Below are positions 120 to 11,989 of a DNA stretch of 12,274 nucleotides, in pieces. The first letter of the stretch is position 1. Each line of letters starts with the position of its first letter. The DNA comes from Thermotogota bacterium (GTDB lineage Bacteria; Thermotogota; Thermotogae; Petrotogales; Petrotogaceae), in contig JBNJGY010000051.1 in NCBI GenBank assembly GCA_051748045.1, forward strand, positions 1 to 12,274. Direction: 5' to 3'. A program made the position numbers and the translations under genes. Under the pieces are notes generated by a model. That model did no database searches and was not told the DNA's origin. It saw only the letters and a program-made list of their open reading frames with translations.

Positions 120-3100
120 ATGAAAAATGTCAAAATTTTTCCGCTAAACCAGCATCATTTTGAAGAAGTTACCAATCTTATAATTCCAGAATATGAAAAA
201 GATCCTTTTAACTTTTTGTTCATAGGCCCTTCTGGTTTCTATGTAAAACAAGTTGCTGATTTAGTAGCAAAGAAATTAGGCAGAACCATTAATAGGGATG
301 CTTTTAGAGTTATAAATCAGTATATTACAGAACTTCTTATAAATAATGAACCAGATAGTGTTGTATTAGAAAGAGATTTTCTGAAAGTTTATATAAAAAA
401 AGAGATAGAAGATTTAATAGAAAAAGAAAAGAAGGATTCAGAGTTTTCTTCTTATTTAAAAATAATATCAAAATCTCAAAAATCCACGGATTATATTTTA
501 GATATATTTGAAAAAGAATGGGAAATAACAAGACTTCAAAATACTGAATCTCTAAAGTATTCTGAGAATTTTGAAGAGTTTCATAATTCTTTTGATGAAG
601 ATTCAAATTTATATAAATTATATAAAAATCTACAAGGATCTTTAGAGGATATATTAAATAACAAATTTGATGATTCAGTTACAACAGAAAAAAATTATGA
701 TCCAACAAGCGTTTATAAATGGTTCGTTGAAAATTATCACATAGAAAAAAAAGGGAAAAAACTAATTATTTCAGGTTTTTTTGACCTCACTCCTTTAACT
801 TCAAATGTTTTAAATAAACTTTTTGATATGTTCGAAACTGTTGATTTTTATATTTTCCAAAAACTGAATGATAGATCTTTTTTCTCATTAAATGGTGTTT
901 ATAATTATCTCTTAGATAACGAATTTGAAGTATCAACAAAAGCAGATAAGTTAAAAGAAGCTTTTGATAACAAAGTATTCAATATAATAAAAATGTCAGA
1001 TAATATGGATGAGATACAAAAAATAGCAGGTATGATAAAAAAGTATTTAATAAATGAGGACTTTTCTCCAGAGGATATAGGGGTAGTAATACCTGATGAT
1101 TCATATGGTGCTATTTTTGCTGATTATTTTGAAGAAATTAGAGTCCCATATAGATTTAAACAAGATATACCTCTTTCGGATAGCCAAATTGTCAATATAT
1201 TACTCCAGCCTTTGAAAACTGTGGTAAGGGGTTATGAAGTAGAAGATTTACTCGCTATGGTTGAGACAGGGTTTGGTGGGGATTCCCCATTAACAATGGA
1301 GCAAATAGAAGGATATTTGAGACATTTGAACCTTATTTATTCTTCTGGTAAAAGTTCTTTAAATGCTAGGAAAAAAGAATGGATGAAAGAAATTGAGATT
1401 TTTGAAAAAGAATTAAAAATCAATCTTAATAAATCTGATGAAAAGGAAAGAATAGAAAAACAGATAGACGAAATTGACAAACTTAAAACTTTATTTTTGA
1501 ATTTGTTCGATATATTAAAAGATGTTCTTAAAAATAGAAAGAGTTTTACTGTTAGTTCTTATAGAAAACTTTTAGAAAAATGGTTTAAAGAAGACATTTT
1601 AAAAATGAAAAGGCTTGAAGAATATTTAGATAATATGTATGAAAATAAGATGATTCATTCAGAGATAAATGCTTTAAAATCTTTTGAATCGATGCTTTTA
1701 AAAACAGAAAAATCTTTAGAAAAAATGCTCAGAAAAGAAAAAAATATAAAAATAGAAAAATTCTATAAAATAATATCAGAATTAACTCAGATTGAAACTT
1801 ACAGAAATTCAGAACGATACTCTAATACTGTTGAAATAATGAATCTTTCTGATTCAAGGTTTGTTTATAAGAAGAAAAAATTCTTCACTGGATTTACTGA
1901 AGATAATTATCCAAAAATTTCAAATAATCCTTTTTTAAATTCAATTACAAATGAAAGCGGAAATATAATGAGACTTGCAGAAAAAGGGTTTAGAAGAAAT
2001 TTAATAATATCAATGATTTTTTCAGATGAAATAATTATGACAAATCCAGTTGCAACTTTATCAGGACAACAAATTCTGGCTTCTCCTTACGAAAAAGAAT
2101 TTATAAAACTTTTTAATATAACGCCTGAGAAGATGTATAAAAACAGAAGAGAGATAATAAAGCAAAATCCAGATGAAATATTTTCTTACAATGAAGCTAT
2201 ATTGTACTATGTATTAAATAAAATAGAAATATCTGATGAAACATTTAAAAAGGCTAAGTTAGATATAGAAACTATTTCAAAACATAAAGAAAATAATCAG
2301 TGGATTTCAAATGAAAAAACCTATGTTAACTATCTTTCTCATAATAGGACATCCACTTATGTTGATTGCCCTTTTAAATACTATTTATCCAATATAGCTA
2401 AGGTATCTGGAGAAAAAGATTTCACTATTTTTGCTGAAGGTAATCTAAAACATAAAATAATGGAAAAACTTTTTACTAAATATCCAGATTATTCAAAGAT
2501 GAAAGAGCTTGATCTAGAAACAGAAAAATTAAAACAAGAAATAAAAACAATAGCTCATGAAGTTTGGGATGACACTGTATATGATGAAATATCAAGGTTT
2601 GAAGCAGTAAAAACCGTTGAAATAGAAAAAATAGCGGAAGAACTGTTAACAGCTATACAAAGCCACCTTGAAGAGTACATAAAAATAAGAAAGAATATGG
2701 AATTAAATTATTCTCAAGTTGTGAAAACTGAAGAAGTATTACAAGAAAAACTTGATTTTATTAAACATAAAGATCTAAATTTCAACACTAGAATAGATAG
2801 GATAGATCTTTTAAATGGAAATTATGAATATAGATTAGATGAATTTGATGATATTATGTCTGGAAACGCTTATTCTATTATTGATTATAAGAATAAATAT
2901 AATATACAAAGTGAGCAGCTTTTTTTATATTATTTGACATTAAAACAAAATGAAGAATGGAAAAACAAATTGGAGAAATCGAGTATATATCTAAAATTCA
3001 TGCCTCTTTCTGAAACGAAGACGAAAGTAGGAGATAAATTTATAAAAATACAGAATGAAACTGTGATCTTAAAAAAACCTGGCAATTCAAAACAATATGT

Positions 3101-3353
3101 CAATTTTCACATTTCTGAATTCTACAAATGGATGGATAAGTTATTAGATCACATTGAAAATTCTTATTTTGTACCTATCGCCAAAAAAGAAAGAAAAGTG
3201 AGAAGATTCATAGAAGAAATGAAAGATATTTATGAATGTAGAGATACTGGTGAGAAATATTACGACTGTGATTTTTGTGATTTCAGAAATCTTTGCACAA
3301 CATTGGAATACTTGGATGATTTTAAAGTCAAGCCAAAATCTTTTTATAGGTGA
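120..3353 (+). CDS. addB: AddB/RexB-like helicase-nuclease subunit B (degenerate helicase N-terminus, PD-(D/E)xK nuclease with Fe-S cysteines)
   Basis: 1077 aa. EDIGVVIP motif, LSHNRTSTYVDCPFKYY, RIDRID and IIDYK RecB-family nuclease motifs, C-terminal CDFCDFRNLC (CxxCx5C) completing a 1+3 Cys Fe-S pattern. Lies directly upstream of a UvrD-type helicase-nuclease. Confidence 0.85.
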   Translation: MKNVKIFPLNQHHFEEVTNLIIPEYEKDPFNFLFIGPSGFYVKQVADLVAKKLGRTINRDAFRVINQYITELLINNEPDSVVLERDFLKVYIKKEIEDLIEKEKKDSEFSSYLKIISKSQKSTDYILDIFEKEWEITRLQNTESLKYSENFEEFHNSFDEDSNLYKLYKNLQGSLEDILNNKFDDSVTTEKNYDPTSVYKWFVENYHIEKKGKKLIISGFFDLTPLTSNVLNKLFDMFETVDFYIFQKLNDRSFFSLNGVYNYLLDNEFEVSTKADKLKEAFDNKVFNIIKMSDNMDEIQKIAGMIKKYLINEDFSPEDIGVVIPDDSYGAIFADYFEEIRVPYRFKQDIPLSDSQIVNILLQPLKTVVRGYEVEDLLAMVETGFGGDSPLTMEQIEGYLRHLNLIYSSGKSSLNARKKEWMKEIEIFEKELKINLNKSDEKERIEKQIDEIDKLKTLFLNLFDILKDVLKNRKSFTVSSYRKLLEKWFKEDILKMKRLEEYLDNMYENKMIHSEINALKSFESMLLKTEKSLEKMLRKEKNIKIEKFYKIISELTQIETYRNSERYSNTVEIMNLSDSRFVYKKKKFFTGFTEDNYPKISNNPFLNSITNESGNIMRLAEKGFRRNLIISMIFSDEIIMTNPVATLSGQQILASPYEKEFIKLFNITPEKMYKNRREIIKQNPDEIFSYNEAILYYVLNKIEISDETFKKAKLDIETISKHKENNQWISNEKTYVNYLSHNRTSTYVDCPFKYYLSNIAKVSGEKDFTIFAEGNLKHKIMEKLFTKYPDYSKMKELDLETEKLKQEIKTIAHEVWDDTVYDEISRFEAVKTVEIEKIAEELLTAIQSHLEEYIKIRKNMELNYSQVVKTEEVLQEKLDFIKHKDLNFNTRIDRIDLLNGNYEYRLDEFDDIMSGNAYSIIDYKNKYNIQSEQLFLYYLTLKQNEEWKNKLEKSSIYLKFMPLSETKTKVGDKFIKIQNETVILKKPGNSKQYVNFHISEFYKWMDKLLDHIENSYFVPIAKKERKVRRFIEEMKDIYECRDTGEKYYDCDFCDFRNLCTTLEYLDDFKVKPKSFYR

Positions 3354-3358
3354 TTGAT

Positions 3359-6300
3359 ATGGATTTAATAAAAGAGATAAAACAAAACCCCAATAGAAAT
3401 TTTTTCATATCGGCTTCAGCTGGTACTGGGAAAACATTTACTTTAACAAAATATTATATAAGCATTTTAGAAAATAATTATCCTGATTATGACATAGTAG
3501 ATAGAATAGCAGCTGTAACTTTCACAAACAAGGCTGCTGGTGAAATGAGAGAAAGAATCATGGAAGCAGTTTATGATAAATTAGAAGAAAATCCACCAAA
3601 AGCTATTTTCTATGAAGACTGGTATAATTATTGGAACAATATAAAAATAAATTTATCTAGAGCATGGATAAAAACTATTGATAGCTTTTGCTCTAGAATA
3701 ATAAGAGACAACAATATACAAGTTGGTGTAGATCCTAATTTTGGTATGGTATCTGAATTTAAAAAAGACAGAGAAATAGAAAAAGCCACCTACTATAGTT
3801 TAAAGATGATTTTAGAATTGTATGAAGATAAAGAAATTGAATGGTTAAGAAGTCTTTCGGAAGAGAGAAAAAATAAAATAAAAGATAGTTTAAATTTTCT
3901 AAGAAGTGAGAATGAGACTTTTAAACAAACACTATTGATTATATTAGATGAACTTAAATTAGAAAATTTCAAAAATCTAATAAAAGAAAGTATTAAAAAT
4001 TGGCGTCTTGAAATGACTAGAGTAAAAATATTTGATGAATTAGAATTAGCTGACACAGACATGTCAGATAGATATATAGATATTCTATGGTTATTTAAAA
4101 TAATTTCAAATATATCAAAAGAAATATTTGAAAGTCTTACTTTAGATAATTTTCAATTTGACTTTAAAGGCATATTAGAAAAAACCATTGAAGCATTAGA
4201 AGACGAAAATATAAGAGAAAAATATCAGCAAAGGTTCAAATACATAATAGTAGACGAATTTCAAGATACCAATTATCTTCAAAAAGAAATATTTGAAAAA
4301 TTACATAATGATGATAACTTTCTTTTTTACGTTGGAGACAGAAAGCAATCTATTTATAGATTCAGAGGCGCAGATGTATCTGTTTTTACAACGGCAAAAA
4401 ACGAATTTATAAACAAAAACTATGTTTACTCATCACTGAATATAAATAGAAGATCAGAGCAAGAAATAGTAGACTTTGCTAATGCAATATCAAAAGAAAT
4501 TTTATTCAACAGCAAGAAATTAAACCAAGAAAACATAGATTATAAGATATTAGAAGATTCTCAATTTCAAAAAAGCGATGTTTCTGAACATGAAGAATCA
4601 GAAGGAGAATTGATCTCAGCTAGACTTTTAGAAGATGATTTAAATAGGATTAAATATATAAATATAACTCCGGAAAAAGCTAATAACAGTGAAAGAAAAA
4701 AAGCAGAAATAAAAGCTATGGCTATATCAGTAAAAAAACTTTTGGGACAAAAAATGTCTTTTAGAAATAGAGAGAAAGGTAAAATTCAAAGAGAGATTAG
4801 AGAAATTCAACCAGGAGATATAGCAATTCTTTTAAAACAAATGTCTGGTTATGAAGAAGAGATAAAAGCTGAATTTTCAAAAAACAACATCCCTTTTTAC
4901 ATTATAGGTGGAAAATCCTTTTATTATAAATCAGAAATACAGGCTCTTTTTTCTGCTTTATCTGCTGTTCAAAATCCATTTAACGATTTTGAATTTTCAA
5001 AATATATGATGTCTTTAATTGGAGGAATGAATTTTCAACAATATGACAAACTCATAAAGTTTAGAGAAAGTAAAAAAAGCCTATTTGAAACCTTTGAAAA
5101 AAATATAGAGCATTTTGAAGATTCTAACAACATTTTAATAGCTTATAAAACGTTAAAAAAATATAAAGACTTAAAATACTTTTTGAAACCAACATCTATA
5201 TTGAAAGGTATAGTAAATGAAACAGAATATCTTTTAAAATTATCAATATTAGATGATTCTGAATCAGCTATCTCAAATATCAAAAAACTTTTATCTGATG
5301 CAGAAAAATACAATAATATAGCAAGTTCATTCTCGGAATTAGTCAGGCTTCTCAAAAAATCAAAAGATATAGATGAAGAAGAAGCAGTTTTAGAAGATGA
5401 AACATCCAATAGTGTAAAAATAATGACTATACACAAATCAAAGGGACTTGAATTTCCTATAGTTATTATGGGAGGACTATATAAAAGTCAAAAGAATAGT
5501 AAATCGTCTGAAATAGACTTTTCACTTCCCAATTCTGAAGGAGAAAACTATTATATTATAAACAGTATTTTCAAAGATATATTAAAAGAAACTGATGATC
5601 CGTTTTTAAAATGGTTTAAAAATAATGATTTTCTTGATCAAACAGAAAACCATCGACTAATGTATGTTGGTATAACCAGGGCAAGAGAGATGTTTTTACC
5701 CTTATTGGTGGAGACTAACAATTCTACATACAATGATTTTTTTAGCAAGTTGAATTATAAGGGAATAGACAATATAAATAGTGAAGATATTGAAGATGTT
5801 AATTTAGAAATAAATAAAGAAAACTTTAATAAAGGAATACTAAAAGAAGAAAATCTTAAAAGCTTTATGGATTTGTCTTATAAACAATATATAGCTCCCA
5901 CTTATTTAATAAATGAAACAAAACCAACAGAAGCTGATTATGCAGAAGAACAAGGTCAAAATCTAGAAAGTCTAAAATTAGATTCATTATTTTCTGATCA
6001 AGAACTTCTTTTTAGGGGATCAGAATTACACTCTAAACTCCAGAGTTCTTATGAGTATCATCATTTAGAAAATTTAGTGGAAAGAAATTTACTCCCAAGC
6101 CCTTTATTGGATAAAGATATAATAAAATACGCATTTAATTCAAAAGGGAAAACAATAAAAAATGAATGGAGAATTGTAAAAAATATTAATATACAAAACA
6201 AGGAATATATGCTGTTCGGGATACCAGATAAAGTTATAATAGATAATGGCGAAATAATCATTTTGGATTATAAATATTCTTCTTTGAGAGATAAATCAAA

Positions 6301-6469
6301 AATTGAAAGCTATAAATTTCAAATGATGTTTTATCTATATTTATTAAAAGACTTTGGAGTTCCAAAAAAGGGTTATATAGTTAGTATTAGAAACGGAAAT
6401 ACCATAAAATTTGATTATACACCTGAGATAGAAACCCAAATATATGAAAAAATAAAGAAAATAAATTAA
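3359..6469 (+). CDS. addA: AddA/RexA-like ATP-dependent helicase-nuclease subunit A (UvrD/SF1A helicase plus C-terminal RecB-type nuclease)
   Basis: ASAGTGKT (Walker A), TFTNKAAGEM, TIDSFC, VDEFQDTN (Walker B), VGDRKQSIYRFRGAD, MTIHKSKGLEF, LMYVGITRAR; nuclease GSELH, GIPDKV, ILDYK. Start placed at ATG 3359 because SD AGGTGA (3348-3353, overlapping the addB stop) lies 5 nt upstream. GTG 3350 is the alternative. Confidence 0.9.
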   Translation: MDLIKEIKQNPNRNFFISASAGTGKTFTLTKYYISILENNYPDYDIVDRIAAVTFTNKAAGEMRERIMEAVYDKLEENPPKAIFYEDWYNYWNNIKINLSRAWIKTIDSFCSRIIRDNNIQVGVDPNFGMVSEFKKDREIEKATYYSLKMILELYEDKEIEWLRSLSEERKNKIKDSLNFLRSENETFKQTLLIILDELKLENFKNLIKESIKNWRLEMTRVKIFDELELADTDMSDRYIDILWLFKIISNISKEIFESLTLDNFQFDFKGILEKTIEALEDENIREKYQQRFKYIIVDEFQDTNYLQKEIFEKLHNDDNFLFYVGDRKQSIYRFRGADVSVFTTAKNEFINKNYVYSSLNINRRSEQEIVDFANAISKEILFNSKKLNQENIDYKILEDSQFQKSDVSEHEESEGELISARLLEDDLNRIKYINITPEKANNSERKKAEIKAMAISVKKLLGQKMSFRNREKGKIQREIREIQPGDIAILLKQMSGYEEEIKAEFSKNNIPFYIIGGKSFYYKSEIQALFSALSAVQNPFNDFEFSKYMMSLIGGMNFQQYDKLIKFRESKKSLFETFEKNIEHFEDSNNILIAYKTLKKYKDLKYFLKPTSILKGIVNETEYLLKLSILDDSESAISNIKKLLSDAEKYNNIASSFSELVRLLKKSKDIDEEEAVLEDETSNSVKIMTIHKSKGLEFPIVIMGGLYKSQKNSKSSEIDFSLPNSEGENYYIINSIFKDILKETDDPFLKWFKNNDFLDQTENHRLMYVGITRAREMFLPLLVETNNSTYNDFFSKLNYKGIDNINSEDIEDVNLEINKENFNKGILKEENLKSFMDLSYKQYIAPTYLINETKPTEADYAEEQGQNLESLKLDSLFSDQELLFRGSELHSKLQSSYEYHHLENLVERNLLPSPLLDKDIIKYAFNSKGKTIKNEWRIVKNINIQNKEYMLFGIPDKVIIDNGEIIILDYKYSSLRDKSKIESYKFQMMFYLYLLKDFGVPKKGYIVSIRNGNTIKFDYTPEIETQIYEKIKKIN

Positions 6470-6559: not shown

Positions 6560-8260
6560 ATGGGGAGAAGTATTTCTTCGAAATTTTTAATACCATTTCT
6601 TATTTTAATGGCTGCTTTTTCAGCTTTTATGTTGATTTTCACTTACAATTCAACATATAATTCATTAATGGAAGAAAGACAGAAACAGGTAATGGAAATA
6701 GTCGAGTATACAGATGGAATGTTAACGAGACTAAATGAAAGAGTAGAAAACAATGAAATATCTCTTGAAGAAGCTCAAAGCATGGCGAGAGATTTAATTC
6801 ATAATATGACTTTTGAAGACGGTAATTATATTTTTGGCTATGATTATGAAGGTAATATAGAGATTCCTTTCCAAAGCAGAGAAGTTGGAGAAAATTTAAT
6901 GCAAACTAAAGACCAAGATGGGAATTTTCTTTTGAGAGATTTGATAGATGTTGCAAACTCAGGAGGAGGGTATCATACCTATTATTGGCCTTTACCAAAT
7001 GAAGATGGAGTTGGAGAAAAAGTATCTTATGTTTTGCCTTTTGACGAATGGGATTGGTGGTACGGAGCTGGAGTTTATGTTGACCAAGTAAAAGAAAAAG
7101 TAATGGAAAATTTTATTGTCCAACTATTTACACTTTTGATTTCAGCAGGTATCATAACCTTCTTTATTTATATGCTCTCTAGAAATATTAAAAAGAGAAT
7201 AGATGGGTTAACCCAACAGATAAAAACATTTGGAAAAGGGGACATAACAGTAACTTTCGGTGAAGAAGGGAAAGACGAAATATCCTCAATTGGTATATAC
7301 TTAAATAAAATGGCATCTGGATTGAGAAGTATTATTAATGAAATCCAAAATGCAGCAGACAAAATATCTAGTTCATCACAAGATTTGGCATCAGTTGCAG
7401 AGGAAACATCCGCATCTGCTCAAGAATTAAATTCAACTAGCGAAGAAATTGATTCAGAAGCTCAAAATACTGCCGCATCTATAGAAGAAGTTACTTCTGG
7501 AGTTGAAGAAGTATCATCTGCCAGCCAAGAAGTTTCAAAATCAAGTGAAGAATTATCTCGAGAAGCACAAACAGCATCTACTGACGCCCATGATGGAAAA
7601 CAAACATTGAATAAAATCGTTGAAATTATAAATGAAGCAGTAGAAAATACAAACCAAACTTCAGTAGTAGTAACAAACCTTGTTTCAAAATCTAAGAACG
7701 TTGGAGAAATTGTAAATACTATCAACTCTATAACAGAACAAACAAATTTACTTGCTTTAAACGCAGCAATAGAAGCAGCAAGAGCTGGCGAAGCAGGAAA
7801 AGGTTTTGCTGTTGTAGCAGATGAGATAAGAAAACTTGCTGAAGAATCACAAGGTGCAACAGATCAAATTGCAAAAATTCTCAAAGAAATAGAGGATGAA
7901 GCAGATAAAGCAGATAAATCAACTGCAACAACAGTTAGCAAAGTTAAAGAAACAGATGATCAATTTAAAAACGTTCTAGCTAAATTCGAAAATATCCTTG
8001 GCCAAATAGAAAGTATAGCAGGAAAAGTAGAAAATATGAGTGCCAATGCTGAAGAACAAAGTGCATCTGCAGAAGAAATGTCAGCAGCAATGGACAAATC
8101 CACTCAATCTGTTTTAGATATTACCGAAAAAATAAAAACTCTAAAAGAAGCTGCAAAACAAGAAAGTGATGGTGCATTACAAGTTTCAGATTCTGGTGAA
8201 GAATTATCAATGCTTTCAGAAAAACTCATGGAAGAACTTAAAAAATTTAAAACGAAATGA
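6560..8260 (+). CDS. methyl-accepting chemotaxis protein with single Cache (sCache_2-like) sensor and HAMP domain
   Basis: Two hydrophobic TM segments flank NYIFGY...KDQDG...[10 protein letters not shown]...EKVSYV...[10 protein letters not shown] (sCache_2 pattern). Signalling hairpin [37 protein letters not shown] methylation heptads ([27 protein letters not shown]). Confidence 0.95.
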
Positions 8261-8293: not shown

Positions 8294-9433
8294 TTATTCA
8301 AATTCTATCCATTTATTATTGTTTTTAGAACTTTCAACAGCTTTTTCTATAAATTTTACACCTTTAATTCCTGTATCTATTTCAGGGTAATATCCAGCAG
8401 GTACATCAATATCAAAATCTTTCCTCATAATAGCGTTTATAAAATTCTTGTATGTTCTGGCAAAAGCTTCTATATATCCTTCAGGATGTCCACCTTCAGT
8501 TAAAAAGTCTTTTTTTATTTCTGGATAAATTAAACTACTATTTCTTGAAACCATTTGAGAAGGACCATTTAGTTTTGAATACTCTAAGTAATTGGCTTTA
8601 TTTTGGTGCCATTTTATAGAGCCCTTTGTTCCGATGATTTCAATACCAAGATCATTATCATTTCCTATTGCAATCTGAGATATCCAATAATGGCCTTTAG
8701 CTCCATTATCAAATTCAATCATCATAGTAACATTATTATCTAGTTTTATATTTTCTCCAAATTTATCTAATCTCGCAGAAATCTTTTTAATCTTCAAATC
8801 AGTAGTAAAACTGACTAGATTTTCTAAGTGTGTTCCTATGTCACCTGTTGAATTACTCGGGCCTGATATTTCAGGATTTAGTCTCCAATTTGCGTGTTCA
8901 TTATCCATGATATTTTCTGTATCTGCCATCCAATCTTGAATATATCTTCCTGAAACATATCTTATTTGACCAAGTTCTCCGTTTAAAACCATCTTCCTAA
9001 TTTGTTGAACCATTGAATAACCAGTATAAGCATAAGTCACAGCAAATAAAAGATCTTTTTTCATTGCAATATCTCTTAATTCTTCTGCTTCTTCTAATGA
9101 AATAGTAACAGGTTTATCACATATAATATGAAACCCTTTTTCTAAAAATAACTTTGCTATATCATAATGAAAAACATTTGGTGTTGCTATTATAATAAAA
9201 TCTGGTTTATCTTCTCTGTCAGATTCTTTTTGAGCCATTTCTTTATAATCTTTATAAACTCTTGATTCATCTATTTCCCACTTTTTAGCTAATTTCAAAT
9301 TTTTCTCATAATCTCTTGAAAAAACAGAAGCTACAGGTTCAGCTAAATTATGATAATTTGCTGCTTTTCTGTGTACTTCACCTATTAAAGAACCAGGTCC
9401 TCCTCCAATCATTCCATATCTCAACTTTCTCAT
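8294..9433 (-). CDS. Gfo/Idh/MocA family NAD(P)-dependent oxidoreductase
   Basis: Rossmann GMIGGGPGSLIGEVHR, IATPNVFH, ICDKP (EKP motif variant), GDIGTH, GHPEGYIEAF. Start moved to ATG 9433 (MRKLRYG, 379 aa) because SD AAGGGGGTG is at 9448-9440 and the longer ORF begins inside a terminator hairpin. Confidence 0.9.
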   Translation of the reverse strand: MRKLRYGMIGGGPGSLIGEVHRKAANYHNLAEPVASVFSRDYEKNLKLAKKWEIDESRVYKDYKEMAQKESDREDKPDFIIIATPNVFHYDIAKLFLEKGFHIICDKPVTISLEEAEELRDIAMKKDLLFAVTYAYTGYSMVQQIRKMVLNGELGQIRYVSGRYIQDWMADTENIMDNEHANWRLNPEISGPSNSTGDIGTHLENLVSFTTDLKIKKISARLDKFGENIKLDNNVTMMIEFDNGAKGHYWISQIAIGNDNDLGIEIIGTKGSIKWHQNKANYLEYSKLNGPSQMVSRNSSLIYPEIKKDFLTEGGHPEGYIEAFARTYKNFINAIMRKDFDIDVPAGYYPEIDTGIKGVKFIEKAVESSKNNNKWIEFE

Positions 9434-9464
9434 TCGTTTCACCCCCTTATTATATTTTATCATT

Positions 9465-9493
9465 AAAAACACTCCCATAAAAATGGGAGTGTT
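9465..9493 (-). terminator. intrinsic terminator after ribU-DICT
   Basis: Perfect 11-bp stem AACACTCCCAT-TTTT-ATGGGAGTGTT (9493-9468) running into a T tract on the minus strand, 3 nt after the stop at 9497. Confidence 0.85.
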
Positions 9494-9496
9494 GGG

Positions 9497-10030
9497 TTAC
9501 ACAATTTTATCTAATTTTTCTTTTAATTCAGTTACTAATTTTGGGTCTGTTGATTTTACACCTTTAAAAACTCTTCTTTTTTCATCTTCATGTTTTCCGA
9601 AACCTTCTTGATCTTGAGCAGCCATCATTGATTTTCCAATTTTTTTGTGAATCAATAAAAACCACTCTTTGAACAGTTCATCTGATTCTTTTAAATGTAC
9701 AAATTCTATGTTTGGATGTGATTTTAGCTTTACATCTGGTACTCCAAAAAGATAAATCTTTTCCACATTATCAGCCATTTCAAGATATCTGTTCCATATT
9801 GCTTCCGCTCTTGAGTATTTTTGAAATCCAGCGTAAACAACAGCATCGGATTTATTTCTCAATAAAACACTTTCCATAATGTAACACATTCTTTCAAGGA
9901 CTGGGATGCTTGTTTCATACTTTAGACTATTTGATCCTAAAACGTCATCTGAAACATTTTCACTTAAATTCTTTTTTTCTGCGTCTACTTGTTTAAAAAC
10001 TTCTTGATAAACTGAGAACTTTCTATCCAT
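9497..10030 (-). CDS. stand-alone DICT sensory domain protein
   Basis: Pattern MCYIMES...VVYAGFQKYSRA...RYLEMA...IYLFGVPD...VHL...DEL.KEWFLL matches the DICT (FQ..S, RY..LA, EWF) signature, recognised by eye. Start at ATG 10030 (MDRKFSV, 177 aa) with SD AAGGAGG inside the ribU 3' end. No output domain. Confidence 0.75.
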   Translation of the reverse strand: MDRKFSVYQEVFKQVDAEKKNLSENVSDDVLGSNSLKYETSIPVLERMCYIMESVLLRNKSDAVVYAGFQKYSRAEAIWNRYLEMADNVEKIYLFGVPDVKLKSHPNIEFVHLKESDELFKEWFLLIHKKIGKSMMAAQDQEGFGKHEDEKRRVFKGVKSTDPKLVTELKEKLDKIV

Positions 10031-10598
10031 TAAAAACGCCTCCTTTGAGTTGTTTCTGTATGTATTTATAAACTGTGTTTCCAATAAAAATAACCATTGT
10101 AAATTTTATAAAATTAAAAGGTATAATTACAAATAGTAAATACTCATAAATATTATCTATAAAAGGCATTATTTTTGAAGAAATAGATACTAAAGCTTCT
10201 GGTGATATATTTAATATTAAGTCGTACAAAGGTATTACCATAAATAAATTTACAAAAAATATTGAGATTATAAATAGTGGTGTTGAAAATAAAAAACTAA
10301 TTATTTTATTATTTTTCTTGCTAAAAAAGTAGAAAGGAAATATTATCAGAACACCAGAAATAAAGTTAACTAATTCACCGATCCCAAGAGTCGATGAAAT
10401 AAACATGTGTAAAACATTTTTGAATAATAACACTATTATTCCAGATAAAGGATTTAAGAAATAAAACGTGATAAATGCGGGGATATCGCTTAAATCGTAT
10501 TTTAGAAATCCTGGAAAAATAGGGAGATTAAACTCAATGTAGTAAAAAATAGTTGATACAGCTATCATCATAGATAAAATAGAAATTTTTTTCGACAT
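10023..10598 (-). CDS. ribU: ECF transporter S component, riboflavin (RibU/FmnP) type
   Basis: 191 aa, hydrophobic. IEFNLPIFPGFLKYDLSDIPA, KNVLH, GIGELVNF and PFNFIK motifs are typical of RibU. SD AGGGGGT at 10609-10603. Confidence 0.8.
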   Translation of the reverse strand: MSKKISILSMMIAVSTIFYYIEFNLPIFPGFLKYDLSDIPAFITFYFLNPLSGIIVLLFKNVLHMFISSTLGIGELVNFISGVLIIFPFYFFSKKNNKIISFLFSTPLFIISIFFVNLFMVIPLYDLILNISPEALVSISSKIMPFIDNIYEYLLFVIIPFNFIKFTMVIFIGNTVYKYIQKQLKGGVFNG

Positions 10599-10617
10599 AT
10601 TTACCCCCTAAAATAAT

Positions 10618-10652
10618 AAAAAAAGCCAACCACTAAGCAAATAGTGGTAGGC
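10618..10652 (-). terminator. intrinsic terminator immediately upstream of ribU (attenuator, or ars operon terminator)
   Basis: Minus strand GCC-T-ACCACTA-TTTGCT-TAGTGGT-T-GGC-TTTTTTT: 10-bp stem with one T/T mismatch and a 7-T tail ending 8 nt before the ribU SD. Confidence 0.8.
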
Positions 10653-10750
10653 CCCGTTTATTAAGATATATTATTATTTTACACCACGTAAATAAATTGA
10701 TTATTTAATATTTGTGAAATTAAAGTAAAAAGCTAAATGGATATTTTATG

Positions 10751-11527
10751 TTATAAATTAAAATTCATTGATGACTTTGTCTCTTTTTTTATTGGCCCCA
10801 TATCAAAAGTTCTTCCTAAGGCTAAAACTGTTCCAAGTTCTGCGGGTAATCCAGATTTATTTATCTTTTCTATAGTTGTTTTAATATCATAATCAACTTT
10901 AACAAATTCGTGAGAGACAACACCTTTTTCAATATTAATAATTAAATAAACTGCTTTTGGTACTCCCTCTTTTGTCCTGCCCACACTTCCAGCATTATAA
11001 ATTGTTTTTCCTTTAACAGATTTGTGCATTGATAAATGTGTGTGCCCATTGATAACTATATCTTCTTCAAATGAATTTGCTACTTCTTCCAACCTTTTTG
11101 CTTTTGTAGTAGGCTTGATGTATTCAAGAAGATAGTTGAGAGGGCTACCATGCACTAATAACATTCTAACACCTTCTATTTCAAAACTCATTTTTTTTGG
11201 AAGGGTTTTCAGAAATTGCTTGTTTTCTTTACTTGTGTTTTTTATCGTCCAATTAATGGATTCGTCTCCAACTTCAGTTTCTCTTCCGGGATTGTATGCA
11301 CAGCCACAACTTTCTTTTTCGTTTCCTATTGCATCATCATAATTTCCCATAATTGTTTTTATTTTCAAATCTTTTATTTGTTCAACCACATAATCTGGGT
11401 CTGGCCCATATCCTACTAAATCACCTGTGCAATAAACTTCTGAAATTTCTTTTTTTTCAATATCTTTTAAAACAGCATCTAAAGCTTCTTTATTACTATG
11501 AATATCTGAAATAATAGCTATTTTCAT
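10751..11527 (-). CDS. calcineurin-like metallophosphoesterase (YfcE/MJ0936-like), ars-operon associated
   Basis: SDIHSN, GDLVGYGP, GNYD, VHGSP, GHTH and NAGSVG motifs, plus an extra ESCGCAY. Its SD GAGGTGA overlaps the arsC stop. Confidence 0.9.
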   Translation of the reverse strand: MKIAIISDIHSNKEALDAVLKDIEKKEISEVYCTGDLVGYGPDPDYVVEQIKDLKIKTIMGNYDDAIGNEKESCGCAYNPGRETEVGDESINWTIKNTSKENKQFLKTLPKKMSFEIEGVRMLLVHGSPLNYLLEYIKPTTKAKRLEEVANSFEEDIVINGHTHLSMHKSVKGKTIYNAGSVGRTKEGVPKAVYLIINIEKGVVSHEFVKVDYDIKTTIEKINKSGLPAELGTVLALGRTFDMGPIKKETKSSMNFNL

Positions 11528-11536
11528 TTTATCACC

Positions 11537-11989
11537 TCACAATAAAAAATTCTTTTTTTCCCACTCAGGGTTTCCATCATTCTCAACAAAATCTTTAATT
11601 TTCTTTTCTATTTCATCTCTAACCATTCTAAATTTTTTCAATTTTTCTTCTTCTGTTCCTGCTATCCCATCTGGATCATCAAAAGGCCAAAACATTCTAA
11701 TGCTAATTCCTGGAAAGTGAGGACAATTTTTCTCAGCCTTTGAACAAACTGTGATCAAAAAACCAAATCTTTTATTATCAAAATCTTCAAAACCCTTTGA
11801 ATATTGGTTACTCATGTCTATGTTTTTTTCTTCCATTACTCTTATTGTTAGAGGGTTTATTTCAGAAGGTTTCAATCCAGCAGAATATACTTCGTATTTA
11901 TCATTTGCATAATGTTTTAAAAAGCCTTCTGCCATCTGACTTCTTGCTGAGTTTCTTGTACATAAAAATAATACCTTTGGTTTTGACAT
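11537..11989 (-). CDS. arsC: arsenate reductase, thioredoxin-coupled LMW-PTP fold
   Basis: P-loop CTRNSARSQMAE. Cys10, Cys82, Cys89 and Asp105 (WPFDDP) have the same numbering as pI258/B. subtilis ArsC. Lies directly downstream of an acr3 3' end. Confidence 0.9.
   Translation of the reverse strand: MSKPKVLFLCTRNSARSQMAEGFLKHYANDKYEVYSAGLKPSEINPLTIRVMEEKNIDMSNQYSKGFEDFDNKRFGFLITVCSKAEKNCPHFPGISIRMFWPFDDPDGIAGTEEEKLKKFRMVRDEIEKKIKDFVENDGNPEWEKKNFLL

Follow-up and report, generated by a model that had tools for sequence, protein, structure and literature searches.

RibU, the S component for riboflavin in ECF transporters of group II, with solved structures from S. aureus (3p5n) and T. maritima (5kbw), is a close relative of the transporter subunit considered here, and FMN riboswitch control is typical of ribU in Firmicutes. 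DICT (PF10069) has been described as a sensory domain at the N terminus of GGDEF, HD-GYP and histidine-kinase proteins. Sensory rhodopsin and Htr form a sensor-transducer pair with chromophore synthesis genes nearby. LOV and BLUF are flavin photoreceptors, and the deazaflavin FO (7,8-didemethyl-8-hydroxy-5-deazariboflavin, 8-HDF), a riboflavin analogue, is the established antenna chromophore of photolyases and also serves as antenna in cryptochromes. A passage of a 2022 review (PMC8846402) places DICT among the sensory domains without a discernible physiological purpose.

Here we analyse a locus of a Thermotogota bacterium in which a RibU-like protein and a DICT protein are encoded by overlapping genes. 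The window, i.e. the whole stretch of DNA analysed, is 12,274 nucleotides long. On its minus strand, a 191-aa ORF (10023-10598) matches the ECF transporter S component profile PF12822 (ECF_trnsprt) with 75.5 bits against a cut-off of 30.7, residues 3-172 of 191 being covered. It is followed by a 177-aa ORF (9497-10030, minus strand) that matches PF10069 with 50.7 bits against a cut-off of 23.8 (residues 43-140, profile positions 25-128 of 129). Both family assignments, made earlier from the letters alone, are therefore confirmed by HMM search, with no NCBIfam family scoring above its cut-off for either protein. An alignment with 18 homologs favours the ATG at 10030 over the TTG at 10084 as the DICT start. 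The minus-strand stretch ATGGATAG (10030-10023) contains both this start and the TAG stop of the S-component gene, so that the two genes share 8 nt, exactly as the sequence-only reading had it. Equally in line with that reading, the GGAGG ribosome-binding site of the DICT gene (10043-10039, minus strand) lies within the S-component gene, 8 nt before the ATG; similar GGAGG or GGGGG sites precede the DICT start in related loci. The S-component gene has its own GGGGG site at 10604-10608 (minus strand).

The pair is flanked by two strong hairpins on the same strand. The one 3' of the DICT gene is a terminator hairpin with a U-run (9463-9493; stem-loop 9468-9493, then U5) with a folding energy (dG) of -17.1 and a z-score of -5.5, which none of 200 shuffled sequences equalled. 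The other, found by a terminator scan and by folding, precedes the ribosome-binding site of the S-component gene (10613-10655; stem-loop 10622-10655, then U7; dG -18.9, z -5.1). Its end is only about 10 nt from the S-component Shine-Dalgarno sequence, which leaves no room for a promoter between the two, and it may therefore be either the terminator of the upstream gene or an attenuator in the leader of the pair. The hairpin is retained with changed pairs in a relative that is 95% identical (L008), and a similar leader hairpin is present in L025; it was seen only in these two loci and in the window. The 150 nt upstream of the S-component gene hold no Rfam match at E<=1. The flanking hairpins proposed earlier thus stand, but the notion of a discrete, closed two-gene unit between two terminators holds only in part, since the upstream hairpin may be the pair's own attenuator and since the pair is elsewhere operonic with MCPs or DICT-HD-GYP proteins. 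Contigs from salt-lake RNA libraries span 9544-10054 at >=99% identity (four runs from two studies). One of them, 249 nt long, extends 24 nt beyond the DICT start, where our rule for bridging the two genes asks for 31 nt, and the remaining S-component gene is uncovered.

The profile search finds DICT alone in the 177-aa protein, and no GGDEF, EAL, HD-GYP, kinase or HTH output, which bears out the earlier view of a DICT protein devoid of a kinase, GGDEF or HTH output domain. In a homolog search restricted to this length class, 28 DICT proteins of 175-183 aa were recovered, every one with PF10069 only; the profile search also recovers fused relatives of 410-750 aa. Compared with these multidomain proteins, the DICT protein of the window is stand-alone, has an extra N-terminal helix-strand segment and carries Cys49, which is invariant in 19/19 stand-alone homologs. 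It shares its core residues with the DICT-HD-GYP proteins that are encoded next door in other genomes: E53, F69, Q70, R81, F95, W123, R153 and F155 are invariant in stand-alone and HD-GYP-fused forms alike. As position 49 is Ser in fused and distant DICT forms, photochemistry common to both forms is not evident, and a LOV-like cysteine adduct at Cys49 remains speculation for the stand-alone subfamily only.

An AlphaFold2 model of the protein is a single compact domain with a pLDDT of 93. Its best structural match is the effector domain of TrmB, which binds sugar (2f5t_X; Z 12.1, rmsd 2.6 over 122 residues), and the PLD/Nuc fold matches as well (NucT, 6ehi, Z 11.2; superfamily Z 9-11). Foldseek returns these families again at E of about 1e-3, and sequence identity to the structural matches is 5-17%. 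The PLD catalytic motif HxK(x)4D is absent from the DICT sequence as read by eye, and the DICT subfamilies compared have no invariant His or Lys in common. Given the missing motif, DICT resembles a non-catalytic, ligand-binding use of the PLD-like fold. As modelled, it has a ligand-binding-type fold like that of the TrmB effector domain.

We then turned to the conservation of the pair. A homologous S component adjoins the DICT gene in 35 of 57 related DICT loci, upstream in 17 and downstream in 18, and where it precedes DICT the gap ranges from -8 to +50 nt in all 16 loci measured. Four further loci in Halanaerobiia have an S component beside DICT. Within the window's own family, DICT occurs in 3/26 genomes, and the S component adjoins it in both of the others too. 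The adjacency, which the sequence-only reading had offered for checking across genomes, is thus conserved in several lineages and in two gene orders, far beyond chance. A literature search, covering the main texts of open-access articles, found no published description of such a pairing. The supposition that the two genes are neighbours without functional reason, or that the DICT ORF is no real gene, has nothing in its favour and is hardly credible: the linkage is kept in several phyla and both gene orders, the protein is modelled with high confidence and its gene is represented in the salt-lake RNA.

What does the S component transport? It shares the PF12822 family and the size of RibU, and the solved structures closest to it are RibUs (S. 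aureus 3p5n_A, E 1.4e-14; 5kbw_A, E 1.5e-7). Like RibU, it has no adjacent ATPase or T gene: the window contains no ABC or EcfT gene, and an EcfT of the genome (PF02361, 143 bits) is located on another contig (C33), away from the pair. An S gene apart from its energizer, with EcfT elsewhere in the genome, is the arrangement of ECF group II, and as far as EcfT is concerned it agrees with the earlier proposal of a RibU-type S component served by a shared EcfAA'T module outside the window. In other respects the locus departs from RibU. No FMN riboswitch (RF00050) was matched in the window at E<=1, nor, at the gathering score, in any of 20 related loci. A second, riboswitch-controlled ECF-S of the RibU type is present in 13 of 20 genomes that carry the pair. 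The one FMN riboswitch of the window's genome precedes rib biosynthesis genes; judging by its gene content, this genome makes riboflavin. It also encodes a separate RibU of the T. maritima type (E 2e-18) and other riboflavin-type S components. In a tree, the DICT-linked S components form their own clades (support 100/100 and 100/99), sister to the riboswitch-controlled RibUs, and the S component of the window falls in a DICT-linked clade. The DICT-linked forms arise twice, separately, from RibU. On the strength of this gene inventory and phylogeny, we conclude that the cell probably relies on another protein for riboflavin import, and that the S component is best classed as an extra RibU paralog. 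The earlier identification with RibU is retained at the level of family, but probably not at the level of function as riboflavin importer.

The two origins from RibU could reflect two recruitments for FO but, just as well, two recruitments of ordinary riboflavin importers. In a search for shared specificity positions, a single alignment position (S101 versus G) distinguished the two DICT-linked clades from the riboswitch-controlled RibUs, and one column does not suffice to claim an altered binding pocket.

More telling is what replaces the S component in other genomes. Both FO synthase subunits, CofG and CofH, score above curated cut-offs and adjoin DICT in 9/57 loci (and additionally in L078 and in the genome of L113), and an EamA transporter does so in 4/57. 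Taken together with the 35 loci with a RibU-like S component, a putative supply gene lies beside DICT in 48/57 loci; two of the nine loci with none of the three nearby are at contig ends. Operons composed of an MCP, DICT and either CofGH, ECF-S or EamA are alike except for the supply gene, and the same is true of operons in which CofGH or ECF-S is followed by DICT and DICT-HD-GYP. Of the 29 genomes whose locus holds the S component, none has CofH above its cut-off, as compared with 10/21 others (Fisher p 3e-5, a value to be read with the caveat that related genomes are not independent). Three of four Pyrinomonadaceae DICT genomes as well as G011 and G016 have neither CofH above cut-off nor an S component at the locus, which speaks against a general link to FO, as do the nine loci lacking a supply gene.

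FO synthase itself is closely tied to DICT. In Halanaerobiia, CofH reaches >=430 bits in 7/102 genomes and adjoins stand-alone DICT in 7/7, and in a sample of 401 Bacillales genomes CofH is found in four, with DICT about 2.7 kb away in three; the fourth carries cofD and is thus an F420 producer. In all six DICT-linked CofH genomes tested, cofD was below cut-off, and a photolyase domain was not found in 5/10 CofH genomes. Three genomes with cofG-cofH-DICT (G003, G012 and G014) have neither a photolyase match nor cofD above cut-off, i.e. no known user of FO was found there.

The appearance of CofGH or EamA in the position of the transporter, along with the finding that CofH and the S component do not occur together, suggests FO as the ligand and not riboflavin, FMN or FAD. 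The earlier proposal of a flavin ligand for DICT is thereby upheld in spirit, as a flavin-like and light-related idea, although the evidence favours the deazaflavin over riboflavin and its derivatives. Could the S component nevertheless be a riboflavin importer, with DICT binding riboflavin, FMN or FAD as a sensor, chaperone or uptake regulator? Its kinship speaks for this, as the nearest solved proteins are RibUs and the DICT-linked clades, which have only one specificity position in common, emerge from riboswitch-controlled RibUs in the tree, and so does the EamA family, which, according to a passage of PMC10557607, includes the riboflavin importer RibN. Yet riboflavin leaves unexplained why CofGH takes the same operon position, why it is excluded where the S component is present and why FO synthase is confined to DICT loci in genomes without the F420 pathway; the missing riboswitches, the second, riboswitch-controlled RibUs and the riboflavin synthesis and additional riboflavin-type S components predicted for the window's genome also tell against it. 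We consider it unlikely.

We therefore favour, with a probability of roughly 60%, the explanation that the pair encodes an FO importer and an FO-binding DICT sensor, probably for light. The two genes would constitute a module for acquisition and use of a cofactor: the S component, a RibU paralog, would dock on the shared EcfAA'T energizer and import FO from the surroundings, import being proposed because FO synthase is missing from the window's genome. The DICT protein, co-translated with the S component, would bind FO in the cytoplasm and act as a sensor, most likely of blue or near-UV light, passing the signal on to another protein for output, which in other genomes may be a sensor-less MCP, a DICT-HD-GYP phosphodiesterase or a PP2C phosphatase.

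The neighbourhood of DICT loci is in good agreement with signalling. Sensor-less MCPs, DICT-HD-GYP proteins and B12-type regulators are frequent neighbours, and regulators combining HTH_3 with a B12-binding domain flank nine DICT loci; no sensor domain was detected in the MCPs linked to DICT. In these loci, as with sensory rhodopsin and Htr, a small separate sensor is encoded with a sensor-less MCP and a putative gene for chromophore supply. The differences are that DICT is soluble, has another fold and would carry a deazaflavin, and that the window's genome lacks an adjacent dedicated MCP. None of the 22 MCPs of that genome has the Bacillales-type transducer motifs (LEELRHxEA, WxRP), and the MCP of the window resembles the one preceding the pair in L115 only in a generic way (34% over the signalling domain). 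With photolyases, cryptochromes, LOV and BLUF, DICT would have in common a protein-bound, light-absorbing flavin or deazaflavin, but it shows no homology to any of these, and FO would be its primary chromophore. We know of no family of signalling proteins with FO in this role.

A photolyase domain is encoded in 35/50 DICT genomes and in that of the window, and imported FO could thus serve photolyase instead. In that case FO would be acquired as the photolyase antenna, and DICT would carry or store FO or regulate its uptake, and would be no signalling sensor. Proximity lends this some weight, because a class II photolyase gene directly follows the pair in L028 and another lies about 3.5 kb away in the genome of L031. 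However, G003, G012 and G014 keep cofG-cofH-DICT with no photolyase match, DICT is repeatedly operonic with MCP, HD-GYP and PP2C signalling proteins, and genes close by encode DICT joined to an HD-GYP output. We regard a role confined to DNA repair as improbable.

Another variant keeps FO and drops light: DICT would bind FO as a chemical ligand and inform the chemotaxis or c-di-GMP machinery of how much FO is available or of its redox state (FO/FOH2). All of the linkage data apply here as they do to a light sensor, and the likeness of DICT to the small-molecule effector domain of TrmB is welcome. FO producers are common in saline habitats, and the hosts of the pair live in such habitats to judge by record titles and RNA run labels. 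On the other hand, an outside cue sits poorly with genomes in which FO synthase is encoded beside DICT, and the neighbouring B12-type regulators and photolyases point to light. A purely chemical sensor is an unlikely alternative.

Returning to the FO-binding light sensor, we tentatively entertain a stronger form of it, to which we give somewhat less than even odds: stand-alone DICT and the neighbouring DICT-HD-GYP proteins may represent a new class of photoreceptor, with FO as chromophore in a non-catalytic PLD-like fold, that drives phototaxis via sensor-less MCPs or acts through c-di-GMP turnover, FO being provided by dedicated CofGH or by FO-specific import through ECF-S or EamA. Our literature search, of the scope given above, found no link between DICT and FO, no paper joining a deazaflavin to an ECF transporter and none joining cofG/cofH to phototaxis; the transport-related passages of an F420 review (PMC8498797) do not mention an FO importer.

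To conclude, DICT is a widespread bacterial sensory domain, and the pattern of its gene neighbourhoods, with a RibU-like S component that is always DICT-linked and whose place FO synthase takes in other genomes, leads to the specific hypothesis that its ligand is FO. If true, this would be the first ligand for the DICT domain, and it would give FO a signalling role beyond those of photolyase antenna and F420 precursor. It would explain the retention of CofGH in bacteria with no F420 pathway or detected photolyase. Finally, the S component would be the first candidate FO importer, which would account for the FO supply of non-producers in salt-lake communities.

Profile searches bore out the family assignments of the sequence-only reading for both genes of the minus-strand pair. 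The 191-aa membrane protein encoded at 10023-10598 is an ECF transporter S component (PF12822, 75.5 bits; cut-off 30.7), and the 177-aa product of 9497-10030 is a stand-alone DICT protein (PF10069, 50.7 bits; cut-off 23.8) in which the profile search found no second domain; NCBIfam has a curated family for neither. The proposed layout of two overlapping genes bracketed by hairpins likewise holds. The 8-nt overlap (10030-10023, minus strand), ATGGATAG, contains both the stop of the S-component gene and the start of DICT, GGAGG lies 8 nt 5' of the DICT ATG, and 18 homologs align from this same start. Hairpins with U-runs, both on the minus strand, lie 3' of the DICT gene (9468-9493; dG -17.1, z -5.5) and 5' of the S-component gene (10622-10655; dG -18.9, z -5.1). 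Since the S-component ribosome-binding site (RBS) is only ~10 nt past the end of the upstream hairpin, with no room for a promoter between, this hairpin either terminates the upstream Metallophos gene or acts as an attenuator within the leader of the pair itself. Rfam gave no match in the leader region upstream of the S-component gene, and the leader hairpin could be an unrecognised attenuator or riboswitch. We compared the leaders of the window (minus strand, 10613-10700), L008, a 95%-identical relative (upstream of 3434), and L025 (upstream of 3415); L025 has a consensus promoter, TTGACA...TATAAT, downstream of which a leader runs to a similar hairpin immediately 5' of the RBS. Four salt-lake RNA libraries yielded contigs with at least 99% identity to the DICT gene.

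Two minus-strand genes at 10751-11989, upstream of the pair, encode a 258-aa Metallophos_2 phosphoesterase and a 150-aa low-molecular-weight phosphotyrosine phosphatase; both also neighbour the pair in the 95%-identical relative. A Gfo/Idh/MocA oxidoreductase gene (8294-9433) lies immediately 3' of DICT; the window also encodes a methyl-accepting chemotaxis protein (MCP) of sCache_2-HAMP type (6560-8260) and an AddAB-like helicase-nuclease pair (120-3353 and 3350-6469, overlapping by 4 nt). The first AddAB-type protein (1077 aa) is a PD-(D/E)XK nuclease and the second a UvrD-type helicase of 1039 aa that carries a Cas4-like nuclease at its C-terminus.

The adjacency of the two genes, which the sequence-only reading had proposed to check, is conserved across genomes and in both gene orders. 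The 28 close DICT homologs (175-183 aa) each consist of DICT only, and those that are named come from halophilic or alkaliphilic Firmicutes. In a locus scan with one genome per species, which yielded 57 loci, an S-component homolog adjoins the DICT gene in 35: upstream in 17 (Clostridia, Halanaerobiia and L008) and downstream in 18 Bacillaceae loci. The gap between S component and DICT start was -8 to +50 nt in all 16 upstream loci measured. Within the window's family, DICT occurs in 3 of 26 genomes, each time with the S component directly upstream; L115, from another genus of this family, has MCP, S component and DICT in that order, the genes abutting or overlapping. Such a scattered occurrence suggests that the two genes move together. 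One Halanaerobiaceae MAG has an S component broken into two ORFs (L027, 284-888) and an in-frame TGA within its DICT match (G019:C96:4393-4683), lesions that may reflect a decaying locus or assembly errors.

The sequence-only reading took the S component for the riboflavin importer RibU. The kinship stands, with S. aureus RibU (3p5n, E 1.4e-14) and its T. maritima counterpart (5kbw, E 1.5e-7) as the closest solved structures, but the protein is RibU-like without being the cell's RibU. The window's genome, 99.65% complete, has five PF12822 matches and one DICT. Its second PF12822 paralog, in a ribosomal-protein cluster, is the better match to T. maritima RibU (E 2e-18), a third matches PF07155 at 119 bits, and one EcfT gene lies on a different contig. 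The sole FMN riboswitch of this genome lies 5' of an operon whose ORFs, judged by eye, look like RibD and RibE. At Rfam gathering scores, riboswitches of any type were found at none of 20 pair loci; in 20 pair-carrying genomes all FMN riboswitches are located away from the pair, and 13 have a separate riboswitch-controlled ECF S component. Maximum-likelihood analysis of 55 sequences placed the DICT-linked S components in two well-supported clades, one of Bacillaceae (18 rows, 100/100) and one of Clostridia, Halanaerobiia and the window (22 rows, 100/99), each sister to riboswitch-controlled RibUs from related taxa. The RibU-like paralog of the window's genome groups with the second clade, although its very long branch makes this placement unsure. 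From these sequences, it looks as if RibU duplicates were recruited twice. Such double recruitment would be compatible with a shift to a riboflavin analogue without proving it, since only one alignment position separates both DICT-linked clades from RibUs. Plain riboflavin import with flavin binding by DICT, in keeping with the RibU kinship, does not account for all the patterns, and we regard it as improbable.

The genes that take the place of the S component point to such an analogue. CofG and CofH, which together form the synthase of the deazaflavin 7,8-didemethyl-8-hydroxy-5-deazariboflavin (FO), are encoded by the two genes upstream of DICT in L009, L010, L015, L016, L020 and L022; CofG scores 375-386 bits (cut-off 209) and CofH 460-481 bits (cut-off 426) in L010, L015 and L016, and genome coordinates place CofH beside DICT in L009, L020 and L022. 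In L013 the order is DICT, DICT-HD-GYP, CofG and CofH, ending at the contig end, and in L035 and L039 an MCP-CofG-CofH operon is divergent from DICT; L078 and the genome of L113 repeat the L013-type and L035/L039-type arrangements. In L032, L036, L038 and L058, an MCP gene is followed by DICT and then by an EamA transporter gene; PMC10557607 names RibN, a riboflavin importer, as one of the EamA-domain proteins. Altogether, a supply gene stands beside DICT in 48 of 57 loci (RibU paralog 35, FO synthase 9, EamA 4); the other nine are L011 and L040 (contig ends), L019, L024 and the distant homologs L060-L064. For 50 of the 57 loci the host genome was searched for CofH (six others were left out, and one shares its genome with another locus), and the protein exceeded the cut-off in 0 of 29 genomes with an S component at the DICT locus versus 10 of 21 others (Fisher p 3e-5, an overstatement, as kinship makes the genomes non-independent). 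In the four EamA genomes, all CofH matches fall below the cut-off and score like the menaquinone enzymes MqnC/MqnE.

FO synthase appears to be dedicated to DICT. Among 102 Halanaerobiia genomes, 29 have DICT and seven have CofH at at least 430 bits, adjoining a stand-alone DICT gene in all seven (hypergeometric p 8e-5); two more genomes barely exceed the CofH cut-off, with paired matches resembling MqnC/MqnE. CofH was found in 4 of 401 evenly drawn Bacillales genomes, three of which have DICT ~2.7 kb off with an MCP gene between; the fourth is without DICT and has cofD beside cofH, which marks it as an F420 producer. F420 producers are rare in Bacillales; this fourth genome (G374:C1:3254197-3257776) carries two cofH copies with cofD beside one. 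No cofD exceeded the cut-off in the six DICT-linked CofH genomes tested. FO might alternatively be supplied for photolyase with DICT as its carrier, and a class II photolyase gene does lie 3' of the pair in L028 (519 bits, just below the 550 cut-off). However, a photolyase domain was not found in five of ten CofH genomes, and in three genomes (G003, G012 and G014) with neither a photolyase match nor cofD above cut-off the adjacent DICT proteins are the only known FO user; photolyase supply does not account for all the patterns and seems unlikely. The only photolyase match in the window's genome is a fragment cut by a contig end (C53:9-425).

The AlphaFold2 model of the DICT protein, built on a 19-sequence alignment, is a single compact domain (pLDDT 93, pTM 0.90). 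Structurally it is closest to TrmB, matching its sugar-binding effector domain (Z 12.1, rmsd 2.6 over 122 residues); it also resembles PLD/Nuc-fold proteins (Z 9-11) but lacks the HKD catalytic motif, and Foldseek agrees weakly with these matches. Nine residues (E53, F69, Q70, R81, F95, L119, W123, R153, F155) never vary among stand-alone, HD-GYP-fused and distant DICT forms, and Cys49 is invariant in the stand-alone subfamily only. A pocket that binds a planar ring with a polar chain would fit this pattern. A profile search of 1.84 billion representatives returned 465 DICT relatives at E<=0.001, stand-alone and fused forms mixed.

Candidate outputs around DICT vary. DICT-linked MCPs of Bacillales have two N-terminal hydrophobic segments, no sensor domain, and conserved LEELRHxEAH and C-terminal WIRP motifs, which were found in 0 of 22 MCPs of the window's genome. 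This sensor-less family (~325-410 aa) always occurs with stand-alone DICT (L041-L059, L032, L036, L038, L035, L039 and L113). A DICT-HD-GYP gene lies 3' of stand-alone DICT in L010, L011, L012, L013, L072 and L073, and in L071 (2025-5175) DICT is flanked by two PP2C (SpoIIE) genes, one with an HATPase_c_2 domain, suggesting a partner-switching output. Nine loci (L013, L017, L026, L028, L029, L030, L037, L076 and L077) are flanked by regulators with HTH_3, B12-binding_2 and B12-binding domains, a C-terminal architecture also found in light-sensing regulators of the CarH type; these regulators may be light-dependent repressors of the DICT operons. The XRE-type HTH/B12 regulators are mostly divergent from the DICT operons, and several of the intergenic regions contain palindromes such as CACAAATTGTG. 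Elsewhere in the window's genome (L114, contig C7, 1688-4286, minus strand), a CheR-PAS_10 gene is directly followed by one for a 351-aa protein with B12-binding_2 and B12-binding domains, an arrangement that might feed a B12-based light signal into chemotaxis. FO could itself serve as a chemical cue to such outputs, although this does not account for all the patterns and we give it little credence.

The review PMC8846402 counts DICT among domains lacking any discernible physiological purpose; PMC8612252 repeats its predicted light role, and PMC7063779 reports DICT-HD-GYP proteins in Microcystis. The literature passages searched contained no link between DICT and deazaflavin and no description of an FO importer.

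The most economical account has DICT depend on FO, which cells would either synthesise with a dedicated CofGH or take up through an EamA carrier or an S component derived from RibU. FO-DICT would then be a sensor feeding separate output proteins, with light, judging by the gene neighbourhood, the most likely signal. As neither CofG nor CofH has a match above cut-off in the window's genome, this organism would import its FO through the pair.
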